DNA of 24,405 bases. Source: an uncultured Acidobacteriota bacterium. GTDB taxonomy: Bacteria; Acidobacteriota; Vicinamibacteria; Marinacidobacterales; Marinacidobacteraceae. The translations under genes and the position numbers were made by a program. The notes beneath the pieces are model-generated. The model was not told the origin of the DNA, did not search any database, and saw nothing but the letters and a program-made list of their open reading frames with translations. Positions within the stretch are counted from its first letter, which is position 1. Every line of letters begins with the position of its first letter. This document shows, piece after piece, positions 101 to 19,110 of the stretch. The stretch is taken from contig CAYGAO010000014.1 in assembly GCA_964347715.1 (NCBI GenBank), forward strand, positions 1-24,405. The letters run 5' to 3'.

Positions 101-2062
101 CTGACGCCCCGGGTTCCCCGCAGCGCGGTAGAGGCGGCGGGTCGCCGCCTCGATCAGCGGGGTGAAGCTCGCGTCCCCGATCGCCAGCAGCGCGGCGAGC
201 GCGGCTTCCCGGTTCCCGAGCCGTTCCTCGACGAGCGCGAGGTCGTAGCGGACCGCCGCGGAATCCACCTCCGACCCCGGACCGATCGCCCGGAGCGCGC
301 GCCGGAGCGCTTCCCGGGCGGCTTCCGGGTCGCCCGCCTCGAGAGCGGCGAGCCCCTCGCCGAGCGCGCGGGCCGCGGGTGACTCGGGCCCGCCGTCCAC
401 TCGCCGCCAGATCCACGGCGGGCCGGGCGACCCGGCGAGCTGGCTCTCCCGAACGACGACCGCTCCTCCCCGGACCGAGGCCGAACAGACCTCGGGCCCG
501 GACTCCCGGAAAACGCACCTCTCTCCGTCCTGCTCGCGGACGAACAGGAACCCGGCGTCGCCGACCGAGACGCCGACCGGCCGGCCGGGGTCCAGGCCGA
601 GCGCCCGGACCCGGCCCGCCTCGATCACCGCCCGAAGCGCGAAGCGGGAGCCGTCCTCCCCCTCGTATTCCCGCTGGAATCCCCAGGAGTCCTCGCCCGC
701 CGCCACCGGGATGCGGCCGTCCGGGACGGCGCGCGCGATCCCGGCATCGAGTTCCCGCGCCGCTGCGAGCAGCAGGTCCGGGAGGCGCGGGACGAGTTCG
801 TTCAGGAGGCGGAGCCGCGCCGCATCGCCGGGTCCGAGGCCCGCCGCCGCCCCGAGCAGTCGCGCCGCATCGTCCGGCGACTCCCGGAGAGCCGCCCGGA
901 CGCGCTGGTGCAGGCGCTCCTCGAGGTCGGCGAGCGGCTCGCCCCCGACCGCGAGCCGCCGGAGCGTCCCGATCAGCTCTTCCGGGGCCTCGGGGATCTC
1001 GACCAGCGGCCGGAGTCCGCCGGGGACGGGCGAGTCGTCGAGGAATCGGAACAGGCGACCCACGCTCCGCCGGACGGAGTCGCCCGGGGCGAGTTCGAGC
1101 CGCCACACCGAGAGCCCGGCGCGCGCGGCGAGCCAGAGCGTCTCCGCGCCCTCGCCCTCGTGAGGGAACGCCACCGCGTCCCGCCGGACGACATGTCCGA
1201 CCGGGCGGGGCGCGAGCGCCGAGCGCTCCGAGGCGGTCCGGGGCTCCCGCCGGAAGAGGCCGGCCCCGGTCAGCTGGGCGATCCGGGTGAGCAGCGGGAG
1301 GTCCGCATCCGCAGCGGCGGCGAGCAGGTCCACCGACCGGTCCCGGATCGCGATCTGGAGGTCGCCCACGACCTCGCCGCAGCGCGGGCAGCCGGCGGCG
1401 GGGAAGTAGAGGAGGAGCGCGCGCCCCTCGCCGAAGGCGCGCGCGCTCGACCAGGCGCCCCCCTCGACGGCGAGGGTGAGCGCCGGGAAGGCGCCGGGAC
1501 GGGCCGAGACTCCCGGGAGCGGCTGCGTCTCGAAGCGGAAGCGGTCCACCGCGGCGGCGAGCCCGCCTTCGGTGCGGAAGACGCTCGAGTCCCGCAGCAG
1601 ATCGAGGATTCCCGGATCCTCCCGGGACGCCCAGGCGCGCATCAGCGCATCCACCCGCTCGTCGAGCGGCAGCCCCGGCAGGTCGGCGAGGCGACGCCAG
1701 GTCCCGGCCGCGGGATCGAGATCGAGCGCCCGCCGGTACTCCGCCGCCGCTCCCGCGGGGTCGCCGTTCGCCGCCAGGGCGTCCCCGAGGGTGACCCGGT
1801 AGGCGGCGCGCCGCGTCCGGTACGCCGCCGCCGCCCCGCGCTCGATCTCGTCGAGGAGCAGTCTCCCCTCGGGCGCCTCGCCGCTCCAGGCCTCGGGCGA
1901 GAACTCCTCCGACCGGAGGATCGCGCGGAACGCGCTCTCGACGGCGTCTTCTCCCGCCTCGAGCCGCCGCTCGGCCTCCGCCTGTTCCGCGGCCCCCGGC
2001 GGCTGGGCCCGGGCGGGCGCGCCGAGCGCGACGAGGAGGAGGAGAGCGCCCCGGCGGATCAA
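1..2062 (-). CDS. Secreted protein with N-terminal signal peptide, TPR-like repeat region and thioredoxin-fold-like CxxC (CPRC) segment. It is partial: no minus-strand stop inside the window, so the 3' end lies beyond position 1 or inside MITE copy at 1..100
   Basis: Manual reverse-strand translation from TTG at 2062..2060 stays open for ~687 codons down to position 1 (no TTA/CTA/TCA in frame on the plus strand). N-terminus MIRRGALLLLVALGAPARAQP is signal-peptide-like, followed by TPR-like AEYRRALDLDP and ...LLLYFPAAGCPRCGEV. The TTG overlaps the aminotransferase stop as TTGA. Not in the ORF track because it has no stop in the window. Confidence 0.5.
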   Translation of the reverse strand, partial: MIRRGALLLLVALGAPARAQPPGAAEQAEAERRLEAGEDAVESAFRAILRSEEFSPEAWSGEAPEGRLLLDEIERGAAAAYRTRRAAYRVTLGDALAANGDPAGAAAEYRRALDLDPAAGTWRRLADLPGLPLDERVDALMRAWASREDPGILDLLRDSSVFRTEGGLAAAVDRFRFETQPLPGVSARPGAFPALTLAVEGGAWSSARAFGEGRALLLYFPAAGCPRCGEVVGDLQIAIRDRSVDLLAAAADADLPLLTRIAQLTGAGLFRREPRTASERSALAPRPVGHVVRRDAVAFPHEGEGAETLWLAARAGLSVWRLELAPGDSVRRSVGRLFRFLDDSPVPGGLRPLVEIPEAPEELIGTLRRLAVGGEPLADLEERLHQRVRAALRESPDDAARLLGAAAGLGPGDAARLRLLNELVPRLPDLLLAAARELDAGIARAVPDGRIPVAAGEDSWGFQREYEGEDGSRFALRAVIEAGRVRALGLDPGRPVGVSVGDAGFLFVREQDGERCVFRESGPEVCSASVRGGAVVVRESQLAGSPGPPWIWRRVDGGPESPAARALGEGLAALEAGDPEAAREALRRALRAIGPGSEVDSAAVRYDLALVEERLGNREAALAALLAIGDASFTPLIEAATRRLYRAAGNPGRQQPVDKTPRMGIRPRSDGEPGRPGGCGALSPPDG

Positions 2063-3234
2063 CGGAGGCGCCGGAGCCGTTCGACCGCCTCGACGAGGGT
2101 CTCGCGGGTCTTCGAGAAGGTGAACCGGAGCCGCTGCCGGCCCGCCGCCGGATCGGCGTAGAAGCTCGACCCCGGAACCGCCGCCACGCCGACCGTCTCG
2201 ACGAGCCACCGCGCGAAGGCGACATCGTCGGGAAACCCGAACCCCGAGATGTCCGTCATCACGAAGTAGGCCCCCTGGGGTTCGAAGCAGCGGAATCCGG
2301 CCTCCCGCAGGCCGGCGAGCAGCAGGTCGCGCCGTTCGGCGTAGCCCGCCCGCAGCTCCTCGTGGTAGGAGTCGGGCAGCCGGAGCGCGGCGGCTCCCGC
2401 CTCCTGGAGCGGAGCCGGCGCCCCCACGGTGAGGAAGTCGTGCACCTTCCGGATCCCGTCGGTGAGCTCGGGGTCCGCGATCGTCCACCCGACCCGCCAG
2501 CCGGTCACCGAATAGGACTTCGAGAGGCCGCTGATCGTGACCGTCCGCTCGGCCATCCCCGGCAGCGTGGCGATCGGCAGGTGCCGGGCGCCGTCGTAGG
2601 TGATGAACTCGTAGATCTCGTCGGTGACGACGAGGAGGTCGCGCTCGACGGCGAGCGCGGCGATCCGCTCGAGCTCGGCGCGGGTGAACACCTTGCCGCT
2701 CGGGTTGTTCGGGGTGTTCAGAACGATCGCCCGGGTGCGATCCGTGACCTGGGCCCGGAGCGTGTCCTCGTCGAGCGCCCAGTCGGGTTCGAGGAGCCGC
2801 ACATGGCGCGGTTCCGCCCCCGAGAGCACCGCGTCGGGGCCGTAGTTCTCGTAGAACGGCTCGAAGACGATGACCTCGTCGCCCGGGTCCACGAGCGCGA
2901 GCATCGTGGCGATCATCGCTTCCGTGGCCCCGCAGACCACCGTGAAGTGGAGCTCGGGGTCGAGCTCCATCCCGTAGCGCGAGCGGTAGTGCCAGGCGAG
3001 CGCCTCCCGGAGCGAGCGCGACCCCCAGGTGATCGCGTACTGGTTCTCGTCCCGCCGGATCGCCGCGATCGCGGCTTCCTTGACCGCCGCCGGAGCCGGA
3101 AAGTCCGGAAATCCCTGGGCCAGGTTCACCCCCCCGCGCTCCATCGAGAGCCGGGTCATCTCGCGGATGACGGACTCGGTGAAGCGCGACGCCTTCCGGC
3201 TCTGGCGCCCGCGCCGGGGCGCCGGGGCGCTCAC
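2059..3234 (-). CDS. Class I/II PLP-dependent aminotransferase (aspartate/methionine/kynurenine aminotransferase-like)
   Basis: C-terminal 391 aa of ORF 2059..5700(-) read SRFTESVIREMTRLS..GVNLAQGFPDFPAP..NTPNNPSGKVF..SGLSKSYSVTGWRVGW, the hallmark motifs of fold-type I aminotransferases. Start taken as GTG at 3234 overlapping the slt stop (GTGA); ATG candidates lie inside the conserved N-terminal region, so the exact start is uncertain. Confidence 0.85.
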   Translation of the reverse strand: MSAPAPRRGRQSRKASRFTESVIREMTRLSMERGGVNLAQGFPDFPAPAAVKEAAIAAIRRDENQYAITWGSRSLREALAWHYRSRYGMELDPELHFTVVCGATEAMIATMLALVDPGDEVIVFEPFYENYGPDAVLSGAEPRHVRLLEPDWALDEDTLRAQVTDRTRAIVLNTPNNPSGKVFTRAELERIAALAVERDLLVVTDEIYEFITYDGARHLPIATLPGMAERTVTISGLSKSYSVTGWRVGWTIADPELTDGIRKVHDFLTVGAPAPLQEAGAAALRLPDSYHEELRAGYAERRDLLLAGLREAGFRCFEPQGAYFVMTDISGFGFPDDVAFARWLVETVGVAAVPGSSFYADPAAGRQRLRFTFSKTRETLVEAVERLRRLR

Positions 3235-5471
3235 TCGGGGCCGGTGTCCTGGCCGAGCCCCGGATACAGCCGGCGGTAGAGCGCCTCGTTCCGCATCACG
3301 AGCTTCACATAGTTCCGGGTCTCGGTGAACGGGATCTCCTCGATGAACCGTTCCCGGGGAATCGTCAGGTCCCTCCCGGTCCAGGTCCGGACCCGGTGCG
3401 GCCCGGCGTTGTATCCGGCGAGCGCCAGTTCGGGGCGCTCCCCGAACTCGTCGAGCAGCTGGCGCAGGTAGCGGGTGCCGAAGCGGATGTTCGTCTCCGG
3501 GTCGTAGAGGCGGGCCAGGCGATACGGGACCCCTTCGAGCCGCGCCAGCGCCTGCCCGGTCGCCGGCATGACCTGCATGAGCCCCCGCGCCCCGACCGGG
3601 GACCGGGTCCTCGGGACGAACGCCGATTCCTGGCGGATCAGCGCCGCGACGAGGAAGGGATCGAGATCCCGGCGCTCCGAGAGTTCCTCGATCCGGTCCT
3701 CGTAGCGAAGCGGGAACACGAGCCGCCACCAGGCATCGGGAAGGGCCTCTCCCGCCACCGAGGTGAAGAACGGCGCCGAACGGCGAAGCGCCTGGATCGC
3801 GGGCACCGTCGAGTTCCGGCCGGAGAGCAGATATCCCCGCATCGCGTGGAAGGCGCCGTCGTCGGGGGCGCCCTGCCCCGCCGCCCGTCGGGTCGCCGCG
3901 AGCGCCCGCTCCGCGAACCGCGCGGCGTGGAGCTCCCGGATCCGGGCGGCCTCCTTCGTCCTCCGGATGCGAAAGCGGTCGAGCAGCAGCTCCGGCGCGG
4001 TCAGCGGGTTCTCGATGGTCTCCGGCCCCGCGATCTCGCGGAGGCGCTCCGCCGCCTCGCGGCCGTAGAACGAGTTCCGGTAGCCGAGGAACACTTCCCG
4101 GTAGCGGCGCGCCGCCGCCTCGGGATCGCCGGTCAGCTCGAGCGTCCGCCCGGCGAAGTAGAGGAACTGGCCCGCCATGAAGTCGCCGGGGTGCTCGCGG
4201 GCGACCTGCTCGAACGCGGCGGCGGTCCCTTCGAGCTCGCCGTTCCGGTAGCGGTCCCAGAGCACATGCCAGCGCGCGAAGAGGCCGTGCGGCCCGACTG
4301 GATGCGACTCGGCGATCCGGGCGAGGTAGGGGAGGGCGGCTTCCCGGTCGTTCACCGCGAGCCGGGCGCGGGCGAGGCTGTTGAGCGCCAGGTGGGCGAA
4401 GGGGTGCTCGGTCTCGAGCGCGAGGAGTTCCTCGAGCACCTGGCTCTGGGTGGTCCGCCGCCCGAGCCGCCGGAGCGACTCGCCCCGGTAGTAGAGCGCT
4501 TCCGGCAGGAGGTCCGGCCGCCGCACCCGGGCGAGGGTCCGGAGCGAGGCGCTGAGCCTTCCCCGATGGAACTCCGCGACCCCGATCCGGAGCCGGACGA
4601 GTTCGCCGTCGGCGGCCGACGCGAACCGGCGAGCGACTTCGAGATAGTTCTCGTGCGCGCGCCGGTGGTTCCCGGCGCGGGCGAAGCCGTTCGCCCGGCG
4701 CATCGCCTTCGGATACCGCTCGGCAGGCGTCGGCGCGACGACCTCGGGCCGGCGGTAGAGGCGGCTCAGGGTCTGCCCGGCGGGAAGCGACTGCCGGTGG
4801 GTCGGCATCTCGTAGTAGAGCGTCTCGAATCGCCGCGCGGCCTCTTCGAAGCGCCCCAGGCGCTCGAGCGTCGTGGCCGTCTCGAAGAGCGCGTCGCCCC
4901 GGAGTCCGGAGGCGGCCGCCCCGGCGACGGCGTCGAAGTGGACGAGCGCCGCTTCGTGGTCGCCCGCCGCGCTCCGGCGGCGTCCGAGTTCGAGCCGGAC
5001 CTCGTCGGTGCGCAGGTAGTCCGGGAACTCGTCGAGGACGCGTTCGAGCGCCGGTATCGCCTCGGACCGGGCGCGCGGCAGGCTCCCGCCCAGGAGGTGG
5101 AGCGCGTCGGCGGCGATCGCGCTCTCCCGGAAGTCGGGAGCGGTCAGGCGCCGGACTGCTTCGGTCCAGCGGCCCCGGCGGAGCGCGTTCGCTCCGAGCC
5201 GGAGCGACGCCGCGGCGCGGCTCCGGCCCGAGGCGCTCGGGTCGTCGGCGACCGCTTCGAGGGCGCGGCGTACTTCGTCCCGCGAGCCGCGCCCGGCGGC
5301 GTCCCGGACCCGGGCGAGGTCGGCGGGAAGGGTCTCGAGCGCCGCCCAGGGAAGCGGCGGCTCCGGCTCCTCGGGCGCTCGCGGGAGGGCGGGGGCGAGG
5401 AGCGCGAGGAAGAAGAATCCGACCAGCGCGCCGGGGATCGCCGGGAACCGCCTGGAGAGAAGCCGCCTCAT
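3231..5471 (-). CDS. slt: Soluble lytic murein transglycosylase (Slt70-like: signal peptide, superhelical TPR-like N-domain, C-terminal SLT domain)
   Basis: ORF 3231..5471(-) of 746 aa. N-terminus MRRLLSRRFPAIPGALVGFFFLALLAPALP is a signal peptide. C-terminal QESAFVP..SPVGARGLMQVMPATG..AGYNAGP is the SLT catalytic motif set. Confidence 0.85.
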   Translation of the reverse strand: MRRLLSRRFPAIPGALVGFFFLALLAPALPRAPEEPEPPLPWAALETLPADLARVRDAAGRGSRDEVRRALEAVADDPSASGRSRAAASLRLGANALRRGRWTEAVRRLTAPDFRESAIAADALHLLGGSLPRARSEAIPALERVLDEFPDYLRTDEVRLELGRRRSAAGDHEAALVHFDAVAGAAASGLRGDALFETATTLERLGRFEEAARRFETLYYEMPTHRQSLPAGQTLSRLYRRPEVVAPTPAERYPKAMRRANGFARAGNHRRAHENYLEVARRFASAADGELVRLRIGVAEFHRGRLSASLRTLARVRRPDLLPEALYYRGESLRRLGRRTTQSQVLEELLALETEHPFAHLALNSLARARLAVNDREAALPYLARIAESHPVGPHGLFARWHVLWDRYRNGELEGTAAAFEQVAREHPGDFMAGQFLYFAGRTLELTGDPEAAARRYREVFLGYRNSFYGREAAERLREIAGPETIENPLTAPELLLDRFRIRRTKEAARIRELHAARFAERALAATRRAAGQGAPDDGAFHAMRGYLLSGRNSTVPAIQALRRSAPFFTSVAGEALPDAWWRLVFPLRYEDRIEELSERRDLDPFLVAALIRQESAFVPRTRSPVGARGLMQVMPATGQALARLEGVPYRLARLYDPETNIRFGTRYLRQLLDEFGERPELALAGYNAGPHRVRTWTGRDLTIPRERFIEEIPFTETRNYVKLVMRNEALYRRLYPGLGQDTGPE

Positions 5472-5481
5472 CTGCTACAAT
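5453..5481 (+). promoter_or_regulatory. Putative sigma70-like promoter for tmRNA precursor (TGGAGA-17 bp-TACAAT)
   Basis: TGGAGA at 5453..5458, 17-bp spacer, TACAAT at 5476..5481, about 85 nt upstream of the mature tmRNA 5' end (tmRNA is processed from a precursor by RNase P). Overlaps the divergent slt start region. Confidence 0.25.
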
Positions 5482-5561
5482 CCTACCCGTTCGCGCGACG
5501 GTGGCGCAGGTCCGGCTCTCGCGCCGGATCGGTGGTTGCCGGAGATTCTCGCGCGAGAGGA

Positions 5562-5934
5562 GGGGGCGTACTGGGTTCGACGAAGGGACATGAAGCAGCG
5601 ACTGCATGCCGGGGTTCCATCTTCCGTAAACGGTGGAGAACACACAAAAGCCAACAACGAACTGGCACTGGCTGCTTGAAGCCACGTCCTTCCTGGCCAT
5701 GCCTGCCGGGACGGGAAAGGGCGTAGATCAGGCGGGCTCTGCTGGCGGCTCTCCCGCGCCGTCGGTGAGCATCAGGGATAGTTTCCGCGGCGCGATTCGC
5801 CGGGTCGATGCGCTACGGAAGCGAAACGGGGAAAGGCGCCCTCGGGCGCGGGTTCCCGCCACGACGCGGCTAAGCATGTAGAGGTCGTTGTCGAAGACTT
5901 TCGGACGCGGGTTCGATTCCCGCCGCCTCCACCA
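5562..5934 (+). ncRNA. ssrA: tmRNA (SsrA), one-piece, tag reading frame GCC AAC AAC GAA CTG GCA CTG GCT GCT TGA (ANNELALAA*) at 5650..5679
   Basis: 5' GGGGGCGUACUGGGUUCGACG and 3' GGACGCGGGUUCGAUUCCCGCCGCCUCCACCA with encoded CCA. The 7-bp acceptor stem pairs 5562..5568 with 5924..5930 (one G-U). T-arm GGUUCGAUUCC. Internal tag ORF ends in the canonical ALAA-stop. The 3' block GUAGAGGUCGUUGUCGAAGACUUUCGGACGCGGGUUCGAUUCC matches the E. coli tmRNA 3' domain almost base for base. Confidence 0.92.
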
Positions 5935-5941
5935 CTCTCTC

Positions 5942-5973
5942 GCCGCGCCCGTTCGGGCGCGCCGGGTCTTTTC
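5942..5973 (+). terminator. Rho-independent terminator of ssrA
   Basis: GC hairpin CGCGCCC-GTTC-GGGCGCG (5943..5961) followed by the U-tract TCTTTT (5967..5972), 8 nt after the tmRNA CCA end. Confidence 0.5.
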
Positions 5974-5991
5974 GTCCGGTCGAGGCCTGAC

Positions 5992-6196
5992 GAGCGGTGG
6001 AGAAAGCCCTCGTGTGCCGACGCGGCGCGAAGCACCGCCGGGGGGGTCTCCCTCCCCGCGAAAGCGGGCGGAACGGATCGCGTCAGCGATACGGGCCGCC
6101 ACCCGGTGGGGAAAGCGCCCCGCATCCGTCCGGACGACGGGGTTCCTCGTCTCTCCGAGGACGGATTCTCATGCGGGGCGTTCTATCCACCGGCTG
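5992..6196 (+). mobile_element. MITE/REP-like structured element, copy b (full A+B, + orientation), between the ssrA terminator and the OMP stop codon
   Basis: Left end gagcggtggagaaag, right end ctatccaccggctg (imperfect 16-bp terminal inverted repeats). Internal hairpins include a GAAA-tetraloop stem (ccgccccgcGAAAgcgggcgg) and a long imperfect palindrome in the B half. Flanked by ctgac(g) on both sides. Confidence 0.85.
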
Positions 6197-6204
6197 CTGA
6201 CGGG

Positions 6205-7161
6205 TCAGAACCGGTACTTCAGGTGCAGGCCGAAGCCGTAGAGAGTGCGTTCGTTCGTCTCGAGCGTGACGGTGACCGGATTGCTCCCGTCGAGCCGGTT
6301 GCTCGCCGGGGTATGGCTGCGCAGGCGATCGATGGGGCCGGTCGTGTCGCGGAAGCTCTCGGAGGCCGTCCGCCGACCGGCGACGCCGAGCGAGACCGAA
6401 TCGTTGAGTGCGAAATCCACGCCGACGAGCACCTGGTAGCCGAGCAGGCGCGACTCCAGCTCCGTCTGGTTCGTGCTGGTCGTCGAGGCGAGGTTCTGCT
6501 GGACGGTTCGCAGATCGTCGTGGCGGTCCTCCGGAAAGTACCGGGAGATCGAGGTGATGAGCGCCGGGTCGTCGTTTCGCACCCAGGAGAGGCCGTGGTC
6601 CAGGTTCGTGAAGCCGACGCCGACGCCGAGCCCGATCCAGGGGGTGGCGCGGCTCCGGTTTGTGAAGTCGTAGTACAGGTTCCCGAACAGGTTGCGCGAG
6701 GTGGCGCTCCCGATGCGGTCGTCGGCGGCCACGACCTCGCCGTCGAGCTTCGCAACGGCCACCCCGCCGCTGCTCTCGATCCCGGAGGTCTGGTTGTACA
6801 CAGACTCCCGGTAGAAGTACTCGATCTCGACCCGCAGCCGTTCCGAGCCGGGGAACCGGTAGCCGAGCGCTCCGCCGGCCAGGATGCCGCTCGCGCCATC
6901 GAAAGCGTTGGTCCAGGCCGTCTGCGGCGCGTCCGGGTCCCCGCAGAACGCCGGCATCAGGTCGGTGAACGGATTCAGGTGCTCGTCGCAGATGCTGCCG
7001 GGCGTGTTCGCCGCCGAGCCGCTCAGCTCGAGGGCGGACGAGGAGTTCGTCCCGAGTCCCTGGCGCAGATAGAAGCCGCCCCGGGACTGGGCGCGGCCCT
7101 CGCCGGGGGCGAGGGTGGAGAGCAGGGCGCCGAGCCCGACGAGCGCCGCGAGATGTCTCAT
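6205..7161 (-). CDS. Outer-membrane beta-barrel protein (porin/OMP-like), with signal peptide and C-terminal ...KYRF
   Basis: ORF 6205..7161(-) of 318 aa. MRHLAALVGLGALLSTLAPGEGRAQ is a signal peptide. Alternating hydrophobic/aromatic beta-strand pattern (LRVEIEYFY.., GYQVLVGVDFAL.., LYGFGLHLKYRF) with terminal Phe. The SD sequence AGGAGG lies 8 nt upstream of the ATG at 7161. Confidence 0.7.
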   Translation of the reverse strand: MRHLAALVGLGALLSTLAPGEGRAQSRGGFYLRQGLGTNSSSALELSGSAANTPGSICDEHLNPFTDLMPAFCGDPDAPQTAWTNAFDGASGILAGGALGYRFPGSERLRVEIEYFYRESVYNQTSGIESSGGVAVAKLDGEVVAADDRIGSATSRNLFGNLYYDFTNRSRATPWIGLGVGVGFTNLDHGLSWVRNDDPALITSISRYFPEDRHDDLRTVQQNLASTTSTNQTELESRLLGYQVLVGVDFALNDSVSLGVAGRRTASESFRDTTGPIDRLRSHTPASNRLDGSNPVTVTLETNERTLYGFGLHLKYRF

Positions 7162-7173
7162 TCCGGATCCTCC

Positions 7174-7760
7174 TGTTCGCCGCCCGGAGGAGCTCCGGGG
7201 GCGTCCCGGAATGTTGGCACGCCGGCGCGCCCCGCCGGGCTCGGGGGACGATCCTCACGGTTCCGGCGCTCGCCAGCGCATCGACCAGAGGAGTCCCGAG
7301 ACCGCGATCGTGACCGCGGGAACCAGCCTGCCCCGGGGGGCGGCGGATCGTTCCGGTGGCGCCTGCGGGCCTCCGGTGATTTCGGGATCGGTCCCGCGGG
7401 ACGAGGGTTGCTGACGGTGATGACCGATGTCGGCCAGGTGATTCGGCAACCCGGGTGAACCGGAAAGATCGCAATGGACCCGAATGGATCCGAATTGACC
7501 TGAATTAACCCGAATTAGCCCGAATTGACCTGATTTGGCCCGAATTAGCCTGAATTGACCCGAATTGACCTGATTTGGCCCGAATCGGTCCGTCATGGGT
7601 CCGAACGCGGCTCGGATCGGTGGATCCGCGCCCATCGCGCGCCTCGGCCGCGGCCGGACGGGGCGATCAGCCCCCTGGCCCGCAACCCTTCGAAAAGTTC
7701 GGCGGTCAACCGATCCTGCCAGCCCGTCACGGGTGGGTTCGCCGCCGAGGCGGGCGCTGG
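7174..7760 (+). repeat. Long direct repeat R1 (about 85-90% identical to R2 at 9305..9720). It contains the promoter/RBS-proximal region of the OMP gene, a phased 10-bp array, and a 3' fragment of an AlbA_2/HATPase_c_4-like gene
   Basis: Direct alignment: ctgttcgccgcccgg..gctccggg..gttggcacgccggcgcg..ctcgggggacga.cctcacgg.., then ..cgcctgcgggcctccggtgatttc..ggaaagatcgcaat + decamer array + tgggtccgaacgc..ggatccgcgccca..ggacggggcgatc.agccccctggcccgca. R2 lacks ~80 bp present in R1 (about 7285..7365). Confidence 0.8.
7474..7592 (+). repeat. Phased 10-bp tandem array, about 12 units, consensus GACCCGAATT (read in the other phase, TTGACC hexamers every 10 bp)
   Basis: ggacccgaat ggatccgaat tgacctgaat taacccgaat tagcccgaat tgacctgatt tggcccgaat tagcctgaat tgacccgaat tgacctgatt tggcccgaat cggtccg. 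Confidence 0.85.
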
Positions 7761-7826
7761 CGTCAGGTCGCACTGATCCAGCCCGATCGGGGCGTCGATC
7801 AGGCTGGCGCCGATGGGCTCGTCCAC
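7593..7826 (-). pseudogene. 3' fragment of an AlbA_2/HATPase_c_4-family gene (C-terminal ~45 codons), duplicated together with R1
   Basis: ORF 7593..7826(-) ends ..DRLTAELFEGLRARGLIAPSGRGRGARWARIHRSEPRSDP*, closely parallel to the C-terminus of the intact gene at 9590..11074 (..LRRLQKDLEALRARGSIAPSGRGRGATWARIRRADRRSDP..). Similarity is lost upstream of about 7760. Confidence 0.45.
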
Positions 7827-7996
7827 CGGCGCGGGGGAGGCGCCCCCGCGCGGCGCTTCAGTCAGGATACCGGGCGGGAAGCGGGCAGAGTGAACCGGGA
7901 GGGGCCAGCGCGGCGCGGCGGTTCCGGGCGGGAGGCGTCGTCGCTTCCCCGGCCGGCGAGTGGATCCCGACTCGGCGGGTGGCGGGGGAGGGGCTG

Positions 7997-9100
7997 ATGT
8001 TCCACGACCTCCGAATCCAACGGTTCCGCCTCTTCGAGGACCTCCGGATCGACCGGCTGAGCCGCGTCAACCTGATAGCCGGGAAGAACAACACGGGCAA
8101 GACCACGGTTCTGGAAGCGCTGTTCCTGCTTTCGGGCGGGGGAGCGCCCCAACTCCTGGACCGGACCCTCGGCTTCCGAGGCATCGGCCAGGCCCTCGGT
8201 CAGATCGACCGGGTGCCCGAAACGCACTGGGAACCGCTCTTCTTCGGGTTCGAGGCCGGAGAGCCCATCGCGATCCGGGCCGAGACGGCGCGCCACGGCC
8301 CGCTGAACCTGACGCTGAGGATCGAGCGGCGAGATTCGGTGGAGGTCCGCTCGTCGCCTTCGGGCATCGCCGGGGCCACCGTCGTGGAAGGGGAACCGGC
8401 AGGGCTCGACCTGGGCCCGTCCGATCCCCGGTCGCTTCGGCTGGTCTGGCAACAGCGGGAGGAACAGCCAGCCGAGGGACGAATCGAACTGTTCGCCAAG
8501 GGCCTGCGACTTCAAAACCCCCTGGGGGCGCCGTTCCCGGCGTTCTTCGTCTCCAGCCGAACCCACGACCTGGCGACGGATGCGATGCGGCTGGGTCAGT
8601 TGCGGACGAAGAAGATGGGTGGTCGTCTGACCGAGGCGCTGCAGGCGATCGAACCCCGACTCCGGAGCGTCGAGGACAGTGTCGCGGGCGGCAGTCCCAT
8701 GATCTGGGGAGACATCGGGCTGCCCCGCCTGCTGCCCCTGGCGGCGATGGGAGAAGGAATGGCGGCGGTCACCAGCCTGGTCCTGGCGATGGCCGCTGCC
8801 GAGAAGGGGGTCGTGCTGGTGGACGAGATCGAACGCGGGATACACCACTCGGTGATGGAGGACCTGTGGCGGGTCGTGGACCGGAGTTCACGGGAGTTCG
8901 ACACTCAGGTCATCGCCACCACGCACAGCTACGAATGCCTGATGGCGGCGCAGCGGGCCTTCTCGCAGGACGGCGAGTCGGAGGCGGGGGACTTCCGGTT
9001 CCAACGGCTCGAACGGGCGCGGGACGGCGGCATGCGCTCCGTGGGACTCGATCCGGACGATCTGGCGGCGGTCGCTCGCCACGGTCTTGAAGTGCGCTAA
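7997..9100 (+). CDS. ABC-type AAA ATPase (AAA_21/AAA_15-like; the OLD/AbiL/PARIS-AriA/Septu-PtuA type of ATPase), 367 aa
   Basis: ATG at 7997 preceded by GGGGGAGGGG. Motifs seen: Walker A NLIAGKNNTGKTTVLEAL about 25 aa from the N-terminus, ABC-signature-like LPLAAMGEGMAAV, Walker B VVLVDEIERGIHH and H-loop IATTHS. The ORF-track entry 7595..9100 starts too early, inside R1. Confidence 0.8.
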   Translation: MFHDLRIQRFRLFEDLRIDRLSRVNLIAGKNNTGKTTVLEALFLLSGGGAPQLLDRTLGFRGIGQALGQIDRVPETHWEPLFFGFEAGEPIAIRAETARHGPLNLTLRIERRDSVEVRSSPSGIAGATVVEGEPAGLDLGPSDPRSLRLVWQQREEQPAEGRIELFAKGLRLQNPLGAPFPAFFVSSRTHDLATDAMRLGQLRTKKMGGRLTEALQAIEPRLRSVEDSVAGGSPMIWGDIGLPRLLPLAAMGEGMAAVTSLVLAMAAAEKGVVLVDEIERGIHHSVMEDLWRVVDRSSREFDTQVIATTHSYECLMAAQRAFSQDGESEAGDFRFQRLERARDGGMRSVGLDPDDLAAVARHGLEVR

Positions 9101-9105
9101 AGAGG

Positions 9106-9447
9106 ATGGGCAGGGAGCCCCGAGAGATCACCTCGCCGGCGCAGATTCTCGTCGAGGGGCGAGATGGCGAGCTGTTCTTGAACGTACTGATCGAGGCTCT
9201 GGCAGCGGAGGGGCGACTGACCGAGAAGCGCGCGGACCGCTCCGGGATTTCGTGCGGCAGGTCTCGGAGGGGCCAGGGGAACTTCGAGGCCCTTGATCGC
9301 CCTGTTCGCCGCCCGGACGAGCTCCGGGCGGTCCCGGACCGTTGGCACGCCGGCGCGTCCGCCGGGTCGGCTGGGTGCGGCTCGGGGGACGACCCTCACG
9401 GTCCCAGCGCTCGCCAGCTTCCGGCGGCGCCTGCGGGCCTCCGGTGA
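9106..9447 (+). pseudogene. Truncated Toprim-like (DUF4276/RloB/OLD-like) partner of the upstream ATPase. Only ~60 codons are unique before the ORF runs into repeat R2
   Basis: ATG at 9106 lies 5 nt after the ATPase TAA, with the SD sequence AAAGAGG. N-terminal ..AQILVEGRDGELFLNVLIEAL matches the hV(E)G..E..F Toprim-type opening of DUF4276/RloB/OLD proteins. No downstream DxD-type motif. Sequence from about 9300 onward belongs to repeat R2. Confidence 0.4.
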
Positions 9448-9720
9448 TTTCAGGACGGTTCGCGGACGAGGGCTGCTGACGATGACGACCGATGCCGGAC
9501 CGGGGATTCGGCAACCGGGTGAACCGGAAAGATCGCAATTGACCCGAATTGACCCGAATTGAGCTGATATTGGCCCGAATCGACCTGAATCAATCCGAAT
9601 CGGCCGGCAATGGGTCCGAACGCCGGTCGGCGCGCCGGATCCGCGCCCAGGTCGCGCCCCGGCCGCGCCCGGACGGGGCGATCGAGCCCCTGGCCCGCAG
9701 CGCTTCCAGGTCCTTCTGGA
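9305..9720 (+). repeat. Long direct repeat R2, the copy of R1. It contains the 10-bp array (9536..9606, about 7 units) and the genuine 3' end of the AlbA_2-family gene
   Basis: See R1. Array: gcaattgacc cgaattgacc cgaattgagc tgatattggc ccgaatcgac ctgaatcaat ccgaatcggc cgg. Confidence 0.8.
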
Positions 9721-11074
9721 GACGCCGGAGGTCAACCGGTTGCGAAAGCCCGGCCCGGATATCCCGGAGCGCCAGCGGATGCCCTTCGCGATCCAGCAGC
9801 GCCAGAATCGCCTTTTGCCGGTCTTCGCTCGGCTCCTTCTCCGCGATGGGGTCGGCGCTGCGTTTCGCCGCCCCGGGCTCGGGATCCGGTCGCGTCTCCG
9901 TCCCGGCGCGCCGGAACCGGACGGTCACGTTGCCCGCATCGTCCTCGATCTCGGGGCGGGGGAGGCCGGCCCGTTCCGTTTCTTCCGCGATCTTGACCGT
10001 CCCTCGACCCCACTCCTCGATCACGCCCCGCCGGTAGAAGGTCCGGGCGATGAGCGGATTCCACGGCCGCGACGGGTGCGGCCCGAAGAGCTTTTCGGGG
10101 GTCAACCCGAAGTGGAGGGTTCCGGGCGAGGTGACCTCCAGCCGGTCGTCGTAAACGGCGATTCCCGGCGAACCGCCGCCGACGGAGTAATCGCGGTGGC
10201 AGAGCGCGTTCGCCAGAGCCTCGCGAGTGGCCAGCGTCGGGTAGAGCGGCTCGTCGATGCGATCCATGCGACCCGGTTCGAACCGGCTGGCGATCGGCAG
10301 CGTGTCCCGCAGGAAACGCTCGCCGGCGCGGAGCAGCGCGAAGGCGTTTCCGTAGAACTGCCGGTTGTCGAGGAACTCCATGCGGTCGAGGCCCCGGAAC
10401 CGGGCGACCCGAAGCCGGCACTGCGGCAACTCGACCTCGAGCCGTCGTTCGTTGCCGAACACCACCGCCGCCGCCCGCAAGGGGACGCCGTCCCGGCAGA
10501 GACCCAGACCGGTCAACAACTCCCCGGGATCGCGGGTGCCGGGATCCTCGAGTCGGCCGCGTCGAATCGCCTCTTCCACCGTGCGTCGAATCTCGGTCGC
10601 GTCCAGATCCCCGACCGACCAGCCGGCCGCCGGCTGATTCTCCCAACGCTGGTCACCATGTAGGCGCTCCAACAGTACGCGGTGGTACTCGTCGGTCGGC
10701 ATGACGCGCGTCGTGTTGCCGACCCGGCGGTAGGCAGAGCCACGATACTCGTACGGCTTCGCCGTTCCCGGAGTCACGGAAACGACCACGATCTTCAGCC
10801 CTTCGGCGACGGGCACCCGCTCGACGGCCGGGGACGCCGGCGGGTCGATCCGCGCGAGCTCCTCGCTCAGCTGCTCGATGGTCCGTTCGCTCACCTGCTG
10901 CCCCACGGGCTTGCCCTCCGGCGTCACCCCGAGGAGCACCCGGCCGCCCTGCTGATTCAACATGGCGCAGACCGTCTTGGCGGCCTCGCGGCGCATCCCC
11001 GTCATTTTCTTCAGCTCCAGCGTTTCCGATTCGCCGGCTGCGACCAGCGCCGCGATCCCGGCTGCGGTGATCAT
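9590..11074 (-). CDS. AlbA_2 (divergent AAA, Schlafen-like) + HATPase_c_4 + C-terminal wHTH protein, the kind often annotated as 'putative transcriptional regulator / RecG-like'
   Basis: Start chosen at MITAAGIAALVAAGESETLELKK (ATG about 11074, overlapping the upstream stop as ATGA). Motifs: LELKKMTG..AKTVCAMLNQQGGRVLLGV (AlbA_2), LREALANALCHRDYSVGGGSPGIAVYDDRLEVTSPGTL (HATPase_c_4). The ORF-track N-terminal 67 aa are upstream extension. Confidence 0.8.
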   Translation of the reverse strand: MITAAGIAALVAAGESETLELKKMTGMRREAAKTVCAMLNQQGGRVLLGVTPEGKPVGQQVSERTIEQLSEELARIDPPASPAVERVPVAEGLKIVVVSVTPGTAKPYEYRGSAYRRVGNTTRVMPTDEYHRVLLERLHGDQRWENQPAAGWSVGDLDATEIRRTVEEAIRRGRLEDPGTRDPGELLTGLGLCRDGVPLRAAAVVFGNERRLEVELPQCRLRVARFRGLDRMEFLDNRQFYGNAFALLRAGERFLRDTLPIASRFEPGRMDRIDEPLYPTLATREALANALCHRDYSVGGGSPGIAVYDDRLEVTSPGTLHFGLTPEKLFGPHPSRPWNPLIARTFYRRGVIEEWGRGTVKIAEETERAGLPRPEIEDDAGNVTVRFRRAGTETRPDPEPGAAKRSADPIAEKEPSEDRQKAILALLDREGHPLALRDIRAGLSQPVDLRRLQKDLEALRARGSIAPSGRGRGATWARIRRADRRSDPLPADSD

Positions 11075-12842
11075 GCCCGCCCAGTACCCCGGTCGCCGTC
11101 CGGCTCGGGGAAGGGTTCGGGAAGCCCCCTGACGATCTTCACGGTCTCGACGCTCACATGGACGATCCGCCGGAACGCGGTCACCAGGTCTTCGGGCTTC
11201 TCGAACCACCCGTTCGGGTCGTTCAGTATCCCGCTCCGCTTGTCGCGCGTCACCCGGTAGCGGTCCATGAACCACTCGACCGGCGACCTGCCGTTCACCA
11301 CGTACTCGTGCGCCTCCGGCGGAATCCCGGCCAGACGAACGAACTCGTTCAGTATCAGCACGCTCCGGTCCTCCTTGTCGGCGAACCGCATCCTGCGGGT
11401 GCCGATACGGAAGTGCCTGGACTCCAGCCCCAGGAGCTTCGACGGTACGACCCGGAGCGGGTATTCGGCGCAGGTCTCATAGCCCAGATGGAGTTTCCCC
11501 AACGCTCGTCCGGCCTCCACGAAGGCGTCGAAGTCGGGAGCCATCGGAATCCGGGGAAGGCCCTTGGCCAGGTCGTTCGCGAAACGCTTGCCGTAGGCAG
11601 GCGCGTGGAGAACCCCGTACACATAGTCGAAGATGTCGTCCTTCGTGATCGTGTCGCGCCCGTAGTGATCCCGAAAGAGGTGCAGCGCCCAGTCCGTGAT
11701 GTTGTCCACCGGACCCATATCCGCCCTGAAGAGTTCGTCGTCGTCAAAGACACCCCCGTGGGTACTTGGGGTAGGTCCATCTGGGGAAGCACTGCCCGAA
11801 CTCGAGGAAGTGGAAGTCGGGCATTCGGTCGGCGAGGAGGACCGAGAATGGTTTCGTCGCGCCCCTCCCAGGCACGCAGATGACGCGATTCTCCGCTCGT
11901 ACTGGTAACGCGGGAAACACTGGCCCTTCGACACCAGCTCGAAGTCGGGCATCGTGTCGGCCATGAGCGCCGCTCCTCCCCGAGAGCGGCTTCGATCTTC
12001 GCCGGGTCGGTGGTCACCGGGAGCTCCAGCTCCTGGAGCGAGGCGTCCTCGTCGTTCCGCCCGGCGCGGGTGTCCGAGCAGATCCCGATGTATCGGTGCT
12101 CCACTGTCTGCTGTTCGGCGAAGGCGCGCATGGACTGCTGCAGCAGCGAGATCGAGGGGACCAGGTAGAGGACCCGCCCGCCGATCCCGACCATCTCCTC
12201 GGCGATCCGCATCGCGGTGAAGGTCTTGCCCGTGCCGCAGGCCATGACCAGCTTCCCGCGGTCGGCGCTCCCGAACCCGGCCCGCACCGCCTCGATCGCC
12301 TGTTGCTGGTGCTTCCGCGCGGTGAACGGCTCGGTCCGCCAGCGGAGCGCCTCCGGCGCCTCCTCGAGCAGGTTCGGCCAGTCCACGGGCCGTTTCGCCA
12401 GGTCGGCGAACTGGAGCACCTGGACCTCGGGCCGCTGCCCCCGGATCATGGCGAGCGCGTTCGGCCCCCATCCGCGCCCGGTGTCCACGACCATGCGGGC
12501 GGTGAAGTGCTTCTTCCCGGAGGCGGCGAGGAACGAGTCGAGGTCGCCCTTCGAGATCCGGGTGTTCGGCCGGTAGCACTTGCACTGGATGGCGCAGAAG
12601 CCGCCGTCGCGCTCTTCGGCGACGAGATCCACCCCGGTGTCCCGGGCCGAGCGCCCGAACCTGACGGCCCAGTCGGCCCACCGCGAGACCGAGGCGAACC
12701 GGTCCCGGTAGAGCGGATCCTCCAGGAGGTATCTCCGGATCAGCCGCTCGAAGAGCGCCCCCTGCTCGGCCGGCGAGCCGGACCGCTCGAAGATCTGGTC
12801 CAGGACTGTCCGCAGGTCGTGCATCGGCCGCCGCTCCCCCAT
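11071..12842 (-). pseudogene. Decayed type ISP restriction-modification enzyme. An N-terminal Mrr-like PD-(D/E)xK nuclease and the first helicase motifs run in one frame (12842..~11985). A frameshift then joins a C-terminal type-ISP-like domain in another frame (~11750..11071). Most of the helicase, the whole MTase and most of the TRD are missing
   Basis: ORF 11355..12842(-) reads GVDLVAEERDGGFCAIQCKCY (nuclease), then MACGTGKTFTAMRIAEE (helicase motif I) and YLVPSISLLQQ, and turns to nonsense after ..AALGEERR. ORF 11071..13224(-) carries real-looking sequence only from ..LMADTMPDFELVSKGQCFPRY.. and MGPVDNITDWALHLFRDHYG...HEYVVNGRSPVEWFMDRYRVTRDKRSGILNDPNGWF (the type ISP C-terminal domain pattern) up to the stop. 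Total length ~1.8 kb against ~4.7 kb for an intact enzyme. A ~70-bp internal duplication sits at 11772..11845 and 11896..11975. Confidence 0.65.
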
Positions 12843-13012
12843 CCCGATCCGGGCGGAGCGGATTATCCCCGGCGGGCCGGCGCGCCGGGGGCTTGAATCG
12901 CCGGGGCGTCCCCGAATATGCTCCGCGCGCTTCCGGGCGCCGTCGCGCAGGGTCGGCGGCGGCCCCGGTGTCTCGGAGGGTGCCGCCCGGCGGGGTGGAA
13001 GGAAGGTTGCTG

Positions 13013-14341
13013 ATGCTCAGGCGAATCCGGTGGATCGCGCCGACGGTGCTCCTGTCCGCGCTCCTGTGGGCCGAGCCGGCTCTCGCCCAGGACGGGGACG
13101 CGATGAGCACGGTCGGGCTCGACACGGTCTTCGTCCTCCTGTCGGCGTTCCTCGTGTTCCTGATGCAGGCAGGGTTCGGGATGCTCGAGGCCGGGTTCAT
13201 CCGCGCGAAGAACACCTCGAACATCCTGACGAAGAACTTCCTCGACTACTGCTTCGCCTCGCTCGGATTCTTCATCTTCGGCTACGCGATCATGTTCTCC
13301 GAGGGGAACGGGCTCTTCGGGACGAGCGGCTTCCTGATGCTCGGAGCCGAATCTCCGGCGGATGTGCCGCTGTGGGCGTTCTGGCTGTTCCAGGCGGCGT
13401 TCTGCGGCGCGGCGGCGACGATCGTCGCCGGCGGGATGGCCGAGCGGATGAAGTTCACCGCCTACCTGGCCTACTCCTTCATCATCTCGGCGTTCGTGTA
13501 TCCGGTCGTCGGACACTGGACCTGGGGCGGCGGCTGGCTCGCCGGACTCGACTTCTTCGACTTCGCCGGCTCGACGGTCGTGCACCTGACGGGCGGGGCC
13601 ACCGCGCTCGTGGGCGCGTGGATCCTCGGCCCCCGGCTCGGGAGGTTCAACGCCGACGGCACGGTGAACTTCATCGCCGGGCACTCGGTGCCGCTCGCCA
13701 CGCTCGGGACCTTCATCCTCTGGTTCGGGTGGTTCGGCTTCAACGCCGGATCGAATCTGGCGGTCGGAGACGGCGAGGCGATTTCGCTGATCGCGATCAA
13801 CACGAACCTCGCCGCCGCCGCCGGGGCGCTCGTGACCACCTTCATCTCCTGGATCATCTGGGGGAAGCCGGACCTGTTCTTCACCATGAACGGCGCCCTC
13901 GCCGGGCTCGTCTCCGTCACCGCTCCGTGCGCGGTGGTGAGTCCGTTCGCGGCGATCTGGATCGGCGTCGTCGGAGGGTTCGTGGTCGTCTTCGCCACCA
14001 CCGCGCTCACGAAGATCCGGATAGACGACCCCTGCGGCGCCTTCCCGGTGCACGGGGCCTGCGGGTTCTGGGGCACGCTCGCGGTCGGCCTCTGGGGTCG
14101 CGAGCCGCTCGGCCTCGCCCGGGAAGGCCTCTTCTACGGCGGCGGTTTCGAGCAACTCGGGATCCAGGCGCTCGGCAGCCTCGCCACCGCCGCCTTCATC
14201 ATGGTGGCGATGGGGCTCGTCTTCCTCACGATCAAGGCGCTCTTCGGCCTCCGGGTCTCCCGCGCCGAGGAGATCCGCGGCCTCGACGAGAACGAACACG
14301 GCATGGAGTCCTACACCGGGTTCCAGATCCTGAGCTCCTGA
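13013..14341 (+). CDS. amt: Ammonium transporter (Amt family) with signal peptide
   Basis: ORF 12893..14341(+). The likely start is the ATG at 13013 (MLRRIRWIAPTVLLSALLWAEPALAQ), with GGAAGG upstream. Amt hallmarks seen: DTVFVLLSAFLVFLMQAGFGMLEAGFIR, ..FDFAGSTVVHLTGG.., ..WFGWFGFNAGS.., ..DDPCGAFPVHGACGFWG. Confidence 0.85.
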   Translation: MLRRIRWIAPTVLLSALLWAEPALAQDGDAMSTVGLDTVFVLLSAFLVFLMQAGFGMLEAGFIRAKNTSNILTKNFLDYCFASLGFFIFGYAIMFSEGNGLFGTSGFLMLGAESPADVPLWAFWLFQAAFCGAAATIVAGGMAERMKFTAYLAYSFIISAFVYPVVGHWTWGGGWLAGLDFFDFAGSTVVHLTGGATALVGAWILGPRLGRFNADGTVNFIAGHSVPLATLGTFILWFGWFGFNAGSNLAVGDGEAISLIAINTNLAAAAGALVTTFISWIIWGKPDLFFTMNGALAGLVSVTAPCAVVSPFAAIWIGVVGGFVVVFATTALTKIRIDDPCGAFPVHGACGFWGTLAVGLWGREPLGLAREGLFYGGGFEQLGIQALGSLATAAFIMVAMGLVFLTIKALFGLRVSRAEEIRGLDENEHGMESYTGFQILSS

Positions 14342-18568: not shown

Positions 18569-18850
18569 CGTTTCAGGCGCCGGCCGGTCGGATTCCGGAA
18601 CGCTGGCCGGCGGCGCGCGGCGCCGAACGAGCCGGTCGTGAGGCGTTCATGGATTCGGTGTCAGGCGACGGGGAATTCGACGGCCTCCCGTGAGCCCGGT
18701 CGGGTTCGGCCATTACGGTTTCGTCCGGCGACACCCCCATCTCGGGCGCCTCGCAACGAGCGCCTCCGCCTGCCGATCGCCGCCGCCGCCGTCTTTCCGG
18801 CCGCGGCGCGGATCCAGCGCGAAAGGCGGAACCTCGGGGCATCGGCGCGG

Positions 18851-19110
18851 AAGCGCTTCGATCCATCGTCCTCGCTCCGGCTCGTCGTGCTCGCTGGCAA
18901 CGGCGGGCGGCTCGGGGGGGCGGAAGCGCTCCGATCCATCGTCCTCGCTCCGTCTCGTCGTGCTCGCCGGCAACGGTGGGCGGCTCGGGGGGGCGGAAGC
19001 GCTCCGATCCATCGTCCTCGCTCCGTCTCGTCGTGCTCGCCGGCAACGGTGGGCGGCTCGGGGGGCGAAATCGAGCACGCCGATCCATCGTCCTCGATCC
19101 GGCTGCCGCG
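18851..19110 (+). repeat. 73-bp tandem repeat, about 3.3 copies (unit aagcgcttcgatccatcgtcctcgctccggctcgtcgtgctcgctggcaacggcgggcggctcgggggggcgg)
   Basis: Unit starts at 18851, 18924 and 18997 (period 73, >90% identity). A fourth unit is diverged. Because the period is not a multiple of 3, ORF-track frames shift between units. Confidence 0.85.

Follow-up and report, generated by a model that had tools for sequence, protein, structure and literature searches.

What has become of the Type ISP restriction gene on the minus strand of this contig, and what kind of gene was it before? The DNA studied, called the window below, is the whole stretch of 24,405 nucleotides (nt) from an uncultured bacterium of the Acidobacteriota (Marinacidobacteraceae; contig CAYGAO010000014.1, assembly GCA_964347715.1), with a G+C content of 70.8%. 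For positions 12842-11071 an earlier interpretation made from the letters alone (the sequence-only reading) proposed a Type ISP enzyme reduced to a nuclease-helicase stub and fused by a frameshift to its C-terminal domain. We found that this stretch is a dead, internally deleted remnant (pseudogene) of a Type ISP gene, and not itself a member of the Type ISP family. The stub is dead as proposed, but its cause is a deletion of approximately 3.3 kb with an out-of-frame junction. With a probability of about 0.9, a Type ISP gene lost its mid-section in a single deletion, and what was left is the dead remnant of a parent belonging to a sub-clade of Type ISP genes from uncultured marine metagenome-assembled genomes, many of them named Poribacteria, Bryobacterales or Alpha/Gammaproteobacteria.

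The remnant is made of three frame segments (Table 1): an N-terminal part (N-part), a truncated first copy of a duplicated segment (S1′) running in one frame with a C-terminal block (C-block), and the second copy (S2) in a frame of its own. The frame change that had been seen between two joined parts is present, but the segments are three. The N-part holds the Mrr-like nuclease and the helicase motifs I and Ia, as first described; in Pfam the helicase domain (ResIII/DEAD) is covered at profile positions 3-84 of 164 only, with motifs II-VI and Helicase_C absent. It aligns to residues 30-292 of LlaBIII (E 1.3e-40), to positions 4-291 of the 1646 in the PADLOC profile REase_MTase_IIG (fused restriction-methylation) and, by tblastn, to residues 2-287 of a rebuilt full-length relative used as reference. 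Past the segment ending in ‘..VTTDPAKIEAALGEER’ the homology ends; the intact relative L001 proceeds there through STYQS..DEAHRT into the remaining motor. For the coupler and the gamma-class N6-adenine methyltransferase, neither Pfam nor NCBIfam nor PADLOC gave a match, and tblastn with reference residues 288-1325 (rest of the motor, coupler, methyltransferase and early recognition domain) gave nothing at E<=10 over the whole window, which bears out the view that no methyltransferase motifs are left.

Homology is resumed inside the recognition domain. The C-block matches Type_ISP_C at profile positions 123-339 of 342 (E 6.9e-62) and aligns to LlaGI and to residues 1403-1573 of LlaBIII, so that on the map of LlaBIII the remnant keeps residues 30-292 and 1403-1573. 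It was rightly taken to be well preserved, but at 228 codons it is longer than the ~190 amino acids (aa) first given. By this alignment and the subdomain limits given in PMC4872093, the C-block corresponds to the end of the core of the target recognition domain (TRD) plus the whole ‘guide’ subdomain. Taken together, the recognition domain is incomplete, covering Type_ISP_C profile positions 109-339 of 342 divided over two frames; its part upstream of the duplicated segment, which corresponds to Loops IV and V and the jaw in LlaGI and LlaBIII, is missing. From the outfit of a Type ISP enzyme the N-terminal nuclease is thus present, while a complete helicase, the coupler and methyltransferase, a complete TRD and a single polypeptide are lacking. 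As the domain content lacks these parts, restriction-modification (RM) function is gone: the product is unable to translocate, to methylate or to recognise a site. Translation from the original start would yield the Mrr nuclease followed by part of the motor and ~200 nonsense residues. The 495-aa open reading frame (ORF) concerned had no match in an exact database look-up. In the source assembly the N-part is not called as a gene; instead, a 266-aa ORF antisense to the N-part (12096-12896, plus strand) is, which is a typical annotation artefact of high-GC DNA.

Comparison with relatives shows clearly what was lost. A search with the N-part gave 30 genome loci, and ~20 of these hold a full-length, single-frame gene of ~1,620 residues, to the opposite ends of which the two pieces from the window map. 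Homology to the full-length relatives ends at residue 287-291 and restarts inside the recognition domain, leaving out ~1,080 codons for motor motifs II-VI, the coupler, the methyltransferase and the beginning of the recognition domain. On the N-terminal side the deletion would begin just past motif Ia and ‘VTTDP’, and on the other side it would end within the TRD. The same loci, L003, L043 and L044, are the nearest relatives of both parts (62-65% identity for the N-part, 68-74% for the C-block), and therefore the two parts do not come from unrelated proteins. The frame change at the join is real, but it lies at 11972-11970 and not near 11975..11985 as first placed. At the junction ...GGGGAGGAGCGG is immediately succeeded by CGCTCATGGCC..., and S1, the full first copy of relatives, has at the matching point ..TTCTCGG followed by CGCTCATGG.., so that CGG is assignable to either side. 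This CGG may represent a 3-nt microhomology, for a parental sequence deduced from relatives. A similarity of 13 of 14 nt between GAAGCCGCTCTCGG in the N-part and GAAGCCGTTCTCGG in S1 of the relatives was considered as the driver of the deletion and rejected, as it lies 10 nt upstream, off the join. One other internal-deletion derivative of this gene family was noted: in P0256, known from its protein sequence alone, the methyltransferase segment ‘..VAITVLVRNPDA’ is joined directly to the start of S2, and the product ends at the junction-motif stop (..PWGYL). This suggests that deletions have repeatedly ended in the S1/S2 region.

That the junction is an artefact of assembly or sequencing, with the organism holding a full 4.9-kb gene, is extremely improbable. 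Metagenome contigs can collapse repeats, the long repeats of the parent family break short-read assemblies, and N gaps do occur in L003, L010 and L043. Yet the junction is not at a repeat, and it is identical base for base in three contigs from separate assemblies, whose names point to different assemblers: the window contig; the 89-kb contig L034 (by name a long-read assembly), which is 99.77% identical over 20.6 kb and has the same remnant structure with no gap there; and the SPAdes contig L046, 99.93% identical over 10.2 kb with zero differences within the remnant. Since the three agree, an assembly error, which the sequence-only reading had considered, is excluded for practical purposes and the deletion is real. 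Another competitor is a recombination event that joined the N-part of one Type ISP gene to the C-part of an adjacent or paralogous one, in place of a deletion within one gene; we consider it improbable. Genomes with two paralogues exist, and the best relative is L003 for the N-part and L043 for the C-block, a slight difference. However, the differences in identity are small, both parts fall within the same sub-clade, tblastn shows no other trace of a second Type ISP gene in the window, and the outcome of such an event, a dead fusion, would be the same. One two-paralogue case is a Bryobacterales contig on which L012 and L015, both intact, lie 1.4 Mb apart. The single deletion within one gene also has points against it. 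Its size and end points are inferred from relatives only 60-74% identical, and no parental allele from the same organism was found. Moreover, 12 of the 43 substitutions between the window and L034 fall inside the remnant (8.6% of the aligned length), and 10 of these 12 hit the third codon position in the frame of the remnant part concerned, a pattern that is unlike neutral decay and fits continued constraint or the import of tracts from functional alleles. Six of them are crowded into 27 nt (11588-11614), five at third positions of the C-block frame and one a conservative K/R change, and this clustering favours import of short tracts by recombination. The stretch itself looks like a short recombination or gene-conversion tract. 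No stops or indels relative to homologues were seen in either part of the remnant. At columns invariant in all other sequences of the comparison, the N-part departs 4 times in 73 (R18F, F39L, L211M, W241F), the highest count in the set, shared with another degraded copy (0-1 in most intact genes), and the C-block 0 times in 34. The deletion is probably fairly recent.

A further question is whether the remnant was domesticated, with the C-block still translated either as a 297-aa product from ATG 11964 or as the 215-aa ORF from ATG 11718 that the gene caller of the source assembly gives instead. We regard this as unlikely. A GGAGG at 11979-11975, 10 nt upstream of ATG 11964, arose at the junction; no invariant position of the C-block is altered (0/34), and between the two strains (window and L034) it has 6 synonymous changes against 1 conservative one. 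The guide subdomain has a compact fold, with a predicted local distance difference test score (pLDDT) of 85-97 in the model of a relative. Nevertheless, a recent deletion accounts equally well for the intactness, the synonymous changes are clustered like recombination tracts, and the C-block stands alone, without the rest of the TRD core against which the guide packs. Of all parts of Type ISP recognition domains, the guide is conserved best, and it plays no role in base recognition (PMC4872093); hence the preservation of the C-block is partly a family property. Translational coupling of the C-block to the downstream AlbA_2 gene, with a function of its own or a joint one, is doubtful to the same degree: the stop and start do overlap (ATGA), but the overlap is not conserved, intact relatives having a gap of 40-80 nt before the partner gene. 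Similar short ‘proteins’ do not form a small-protein family. A conserved truncated family was considered, as protein databases listed only entries of 230-535 aa, and rejected in view of the ~20 intact, ~1,620-aa single-frame genes in genome loci; the short database entries are gene-caller fragments of frame-shifted or contig-end genes. We retain a deletion, probably recent, that left a dead remnant as the preferred explanation.

The AlbA_2 gene itself (494 aa; Table 1) has an N-terminal AlbA_2 domain (PF04326, E 2.6e-20, residues 15-125) followed by HATPase_c_4 (PF13749, E 1.9e-22, residues 300-387). The initial description of an inactivated RM gene beside an AlbA_2/HATPase gene agrees with these domain matches. 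The overlap of the remnant stop TGA (11073-11071) with the ATG (11074-11072) in the ATGA at 11074-11071, also described there, is confirmed. Homologues with 62-67% identity lie 40-80 nt downstream of the intact Type ISP genes in L005, L009 and L011, and a fragment is present in L008; Type ISP and AlbA_2 are a conserved two-gene module. In all three assemblies the AlbA_2 gene is intact, differing by one amino acid from that of L034 and by one nucleotide from that of L046. The remnant probably still supplies the upstream transcribed region of this gene. A scan of 9300-13300 for sigma-70 promoters and terminators found none, a result that is uninformative at 71% GC.

Table 1. Coordinates of the remnant, its parts and its neighbour in the window, and simple-sequence repeats directly upstream of S1 in related loci
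Feature	Position	Strand	Details
N-terminal remnant (N-part)	11970..12842	-	codons 1-291; Mrr nuclease and first part of RecA1 lobe; ends ‘..VTTDPAKIEAALGEER’
Mrr_cat_2 PD-(D/E)xK nuclease domain	12354..12719	-	residues 42-163; Pfam E 3.9e-37
Nuclease motifs	12635-12612; 12596-12573	-	GVDLVAEE and CAIQCKCY, respectively; inside Mrr_cat_2
Helicase motifs I and Ia	12144..12245	-	I, MACGTGKT (12245-12222); Ia, LYLVPSISL (12170-12144)
Deletion junction	11970..11972	-	...GGGGAGGAGCGG runs straight into CGCTCATGGCCGAC...; from alignment with L003 and L010
Out-of-frame tail of 495-aa ORF	11355..11969	-	ORF starts at 12842; tail of ~200 codons, without homology
S1′	11891..11969	-	last 79 nt of first 128-nt copy; peptide ..LMADTMPDFELVSKGQCFPRYQYE; in C-block frame
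S2	11747..11890	-	second copy, NRVICVPGRGATKPFSVLLADRMPDFHFLEFGQCFPRWTYPKYPRGCL; own frame; ends at TGA 11746-11744
Frameshift-type motif	11743..11758	-	CGGGGG TGT CTT TGA C (CGGGGGTGTCTTTGAC); prfB-type +1 frameshift elements at the S2-to-C-block frame change
C-block	11071..11757	-	228 codons plus stop (GGVFDDDELF...VKIVRGLPEPFPEPDGDRGTGRA*); TGA at 11073-11071
Possible 297-codon ORF	11071..11964	-	MADTMPDF...; spans S1′, out-of-frame S2 and C-block
AlbA_2 (Schlafen-type) and HATPase_c_4 gene	9590..11074	-	494 aa; intact; ATG 11074-11072
Repeat in L003	upstream of S1		(AGCC), at least 14 copies
Repeat in L010	upstream of S1		(ACGAC), at least 22 copies
Repeat in L035	upstream of S1		(AGCGGAGC)28
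Repeat in L036	upstream of S1		(CAAC)22
Repeat in L043	upstream of S1		(AGCAGCCC), at least 7 copies
Repeat in L044	upstream of S1		(CGGA)8
Repeat in L045	upstream of S1		(ATCC)14

What was the parent like? The ~70-bp imperfect internal duplication reported earlier is real, but its unit is 128 nt, of which only 79 nt of the first copy are retained. The two copies are spaced exactly 128 nt start to start (pair D2, 11813-11844 and 11941-11972, 78%); S1′ and S2 are identical at 44 of the 79 retained nt and encode the peptides LMADTMPDFELVSKGQCFPRYQYER and LLADRMPDFHFLEFGQCFPRWTYPK, and S2 gives a second match to Type_ISP_C (profile 109-155, E 2.5e-9). Judged from the relatives, the duplication and the two frame changes around it are inherited from the parent gene and are not part of its decay. 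Nine loci have the duplication: with a unit of 128 nt in the window, L003, L010, L035, L036, L043, L044 and L045, and with S1 shortened by 2 nt in L047. The frame relations are identical in all nine, S2 being shifted by -1 relative to S1 and a +1 shift being needed from S2 to the C-block. The duplication is also seen in ~40 protein clusters, with S1, then the conserved ‘RRIASSAS..SRSSSPTxCPTSTSS..’ (which is S2 read out of frame), and then the C-block. A scan of metagenomes with the S1/S2 junction pattern gave six unrelated chance matches only.

Both copies evolved under purifying selection, in different frames, since substitutions concentrate at the third positions of each copy’s own frame: the mean pairwise differences at the three codon positions are 0.070/0.058/0.247 for S2 (8 loci) and 0.196/0.133/0.421 for S1. 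We had considered S2 as a mere out-of-frame linker left by a compensated duplication, and the third-position pattern of S2 rules this out. In alignments to the solved enzymes, the variable part of the segment (MPDL-xxxxxx-QCFP) falls on Loop VI of LlaGI, whose residues H1368, G1372 and Q1373 contact bases specifically (PMC4872093). The loops of S1 vary among loci (ELVSKG, IQFMFNG, NIMTGS, ALVSTC, NMLEAGT); S2 nearly always has HFLEFG.

Directly upstream of S1, a simple-sequence repeat was found in 7/7 duplication relatives with more than 9 kb of DNA (Table 1). The repeat units are 4, 5 or 8 nt long, none divisible by 3, and stop-free in all frames; as they lie inside the ORF, the frame downstream depends on the repeat number. 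Three of the tracts (L003, L010 and L043) are interrupted by 100-N scaffold gaps. No tract of 20 nt or more was present in any single-copy Type ISP gene of the set. In the window no simple-sequence repeat with a unit not divisible by 3 was seen at 11071-12842, because the deletion took away the repeat together with the opening 49 nt of S1. Among the relatives whose tract is resolved, L035 and L044 have the upstream part in the frame of S1, L036 in that of S2 and L045 in neither, and these differing states may be taken as an indirect hint of variation in tract length. In L047, a 2-kb contig, there are about three CAAA units and the upstream part is in frame with S2; S1 is broken there by the 2-nt loss, and the C-block is intact in the +1 frame.

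Some of these loci have additional features. L036 and L045 are circular genomes in which the locus adjoins clpS/clpA and the repeat upstream of S1 differs (CAAC vs. ATCC); both have a second repeat inside the Type ISP ORF, (AG)20 at 6617-6656 in L036 and (AG)22 at 5670-5713 in L045, which coincides exactly with a frame break near reference residues 945-953. In L035, a 5.9-Mb contig, the Type ISP gene is split (1285-8001) by an insert of ~6.7 kb containing reverse-transcriptase fragments, a large serine recombinase and DUF6788 genes.

At the change of frame from S2 to the C-block, six distinct loci and the window carry GGGGG-N3-CTTTGAC, which has the sequence elements of the prfB frameshift motif (AGGGGG, three nucleotides, slippery CTTT, TGA, then C; PMC12421855). 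L035 and L043 have AGGGGGTATCTTTGAC at the junction, and the window has the variant with a TGT spacer. The +1 frame after CTT-T is exactly that of the C-block. In the 765 kb of loci and window there are 9 occurrences of the motif, those in the three copies of the window locus included, all at this junction, against 0.15 expected from base composition. It always uses TTT for Phe and GGG GGT for Gly-Gly, while elsewhere in the same C-blocks TTT makes up 7 of 67 Phe codons (TTC 60) and GGT 8 of 85 Gly codons. We therefore rejected the motif as a by-product of composition, given these counts and rare codons. It could still be a by-product of the two-frame constraint or of a change between G4 and G5. 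A short change in the G tract is an alternative to ribosomal frameshifting, as P0254 and P0257, which seem to be one G shorter there, read from S2 into the C-block without a change of frame. L036 and L045 are without the motif, and upstream of it the window shows no ORF with a recognisable start by which ribosomes would arrive in the S2 frame.

On these grounds we tentatively propose, as a possibility clearly weaker than the deletion itself, that the parent was a three-state switch, in which the repeat would set the frame of entry into the duplicated Loop VI segment and thereby select one of two recognition loops or an off state. A mutable repeat number would determine which frame enters the 128-nt duplication. 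In frame a, the upstream part would be followed by S1 with its variable loop, S2 read out of frame as a 42-residue spacer, and the C-block in frame. In frame b, S1 would serve as the spacer, S2 would provide the loop HFLEFG, and a +1 shift at the prfB-like CUU UGA C would lead into the C-block. Frame c would be off, and it is in this frame that the deletion would have placed the N-part of the window. Such a switch would toggle methylation and restriction between two target sequences plus off, without a recombinase, and its second state would be tied to the activity of release factor 2.

The AlphaFold model of P0132, a relative in frame a, fits this layout: the spacer derived from S2 is predicted to be disordered (residues 265-295, pLDDT <50), S1 has a pLDDT of ~60-85 and the C-block one of ~85-97. 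The model matches the recognition domains of LlaGI, LlaBIII and DrdV (E 1e-25 to 1e-23 for LlaGI/LlaBIII), and both insertion points fall in length-variable regions of the alignments to solved structures. For the parent architecture as a whole the support is comparative sequence evidence.

The parent gene has the same domain order as LlaGI and LlaBIII (PDB 5FFJ, 4XQK), of which the window keeps only the two gene ends. Its sub-clade adds the in-ORF repeat, the two-frame duplication of Loop VI and the frameshift-type motif, none of which was described for LlaGI/LlaBIII in the literature searched. The nearest precedent is NgoAV of Neisseria gonorrhoeae, in which the specificity itself, and not just the on/off state, is altered through a polyG tract in hsdS1 (PMC9577141); by analogy, the in-ORF repeats of the relatives (AGCC, ACGAC, CAAC, AGCGGAGC, AGCAGCCC, CGGA, ATCC) predict a change of specificity. 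Unlike known phase-variable RM genes, those discussed here are single-polypeptide Type ISP and not Type I or III, carry one recognition segment as two alternative copies, each in a frame of its own, and occur in uncultured marine bacteria and not in host-adapted pathogens; the window itself has lost the repeat. With prfB the junction motif shares the elements and their spacing (Shine-Dalgarno-like GGGGG, 3 nt, CTT, TGA, C), and its +1 frame is likewise that of homologous protein; it differs in lying in a restriction enzyme gene, in being relevant in one repeat state only, and in its absence from two of the loci. Duplicated Type I hsdS genes also hold two alternative recognition modules at one locus, but they switch specificity by DNA inversion or recombination between inverted copies (PMC7394358), while the copies here are direct, 128 nt apart and in different frames, with no recombinase associated. 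Full-text literature searches found no paper joining programmed frameshifting with phase-variable RM specificity, and none on tetranucleotide repeats in RM genes of sponge symbionts.

Other features of the window were also noted. The remnant lies between the AlbA_2 gene and amtB. A direct repeat of ~0.4-0.5 kb (7203-7691 and 9331-9706; pieces 73-93% identical, ~2.0-2.1 kb apart) contains arrays of the 10-nt unit AATTGACCCG at 7473-7585 (11 copies) and 9537-9590 (5 copies). It brackets a gene for an AbiLi/PDC-M38A-like ATPase (7913-9097, plus strand; PADLOC E 3e-48) and a short ORF (9106-9447), and resembles an insertion site that has been duplicated, or the boundary of a cassette. At 18847-19101 there is a 73-nt tandem repeat (3.5 copies, 92% matches), with offset self-matches between L034 and the window.

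The feature in the window is in itself an ordinary pseudogene of a defence gene, and the locus shows that a Type ISP enzyme can be lost while its AlbA_2 partner stays. Its value is as a pointer to the architecture of the parent, in whose relatives long repeats within the reading frame, a two-frame duplication of the Loop VI segment and a motif known elsewhere from prfB, the gene of release factor 2, are linked. If the proposed switch is true, it would be a compact way to vary the specificity of restriction and methylation by reading frame alone, and the prfB frameshift cassette would have a second use in nature. There would also be evidence that contingency loci, known mainly from host-adapted pathogens, operate in these uncultured marine bacteria as well.

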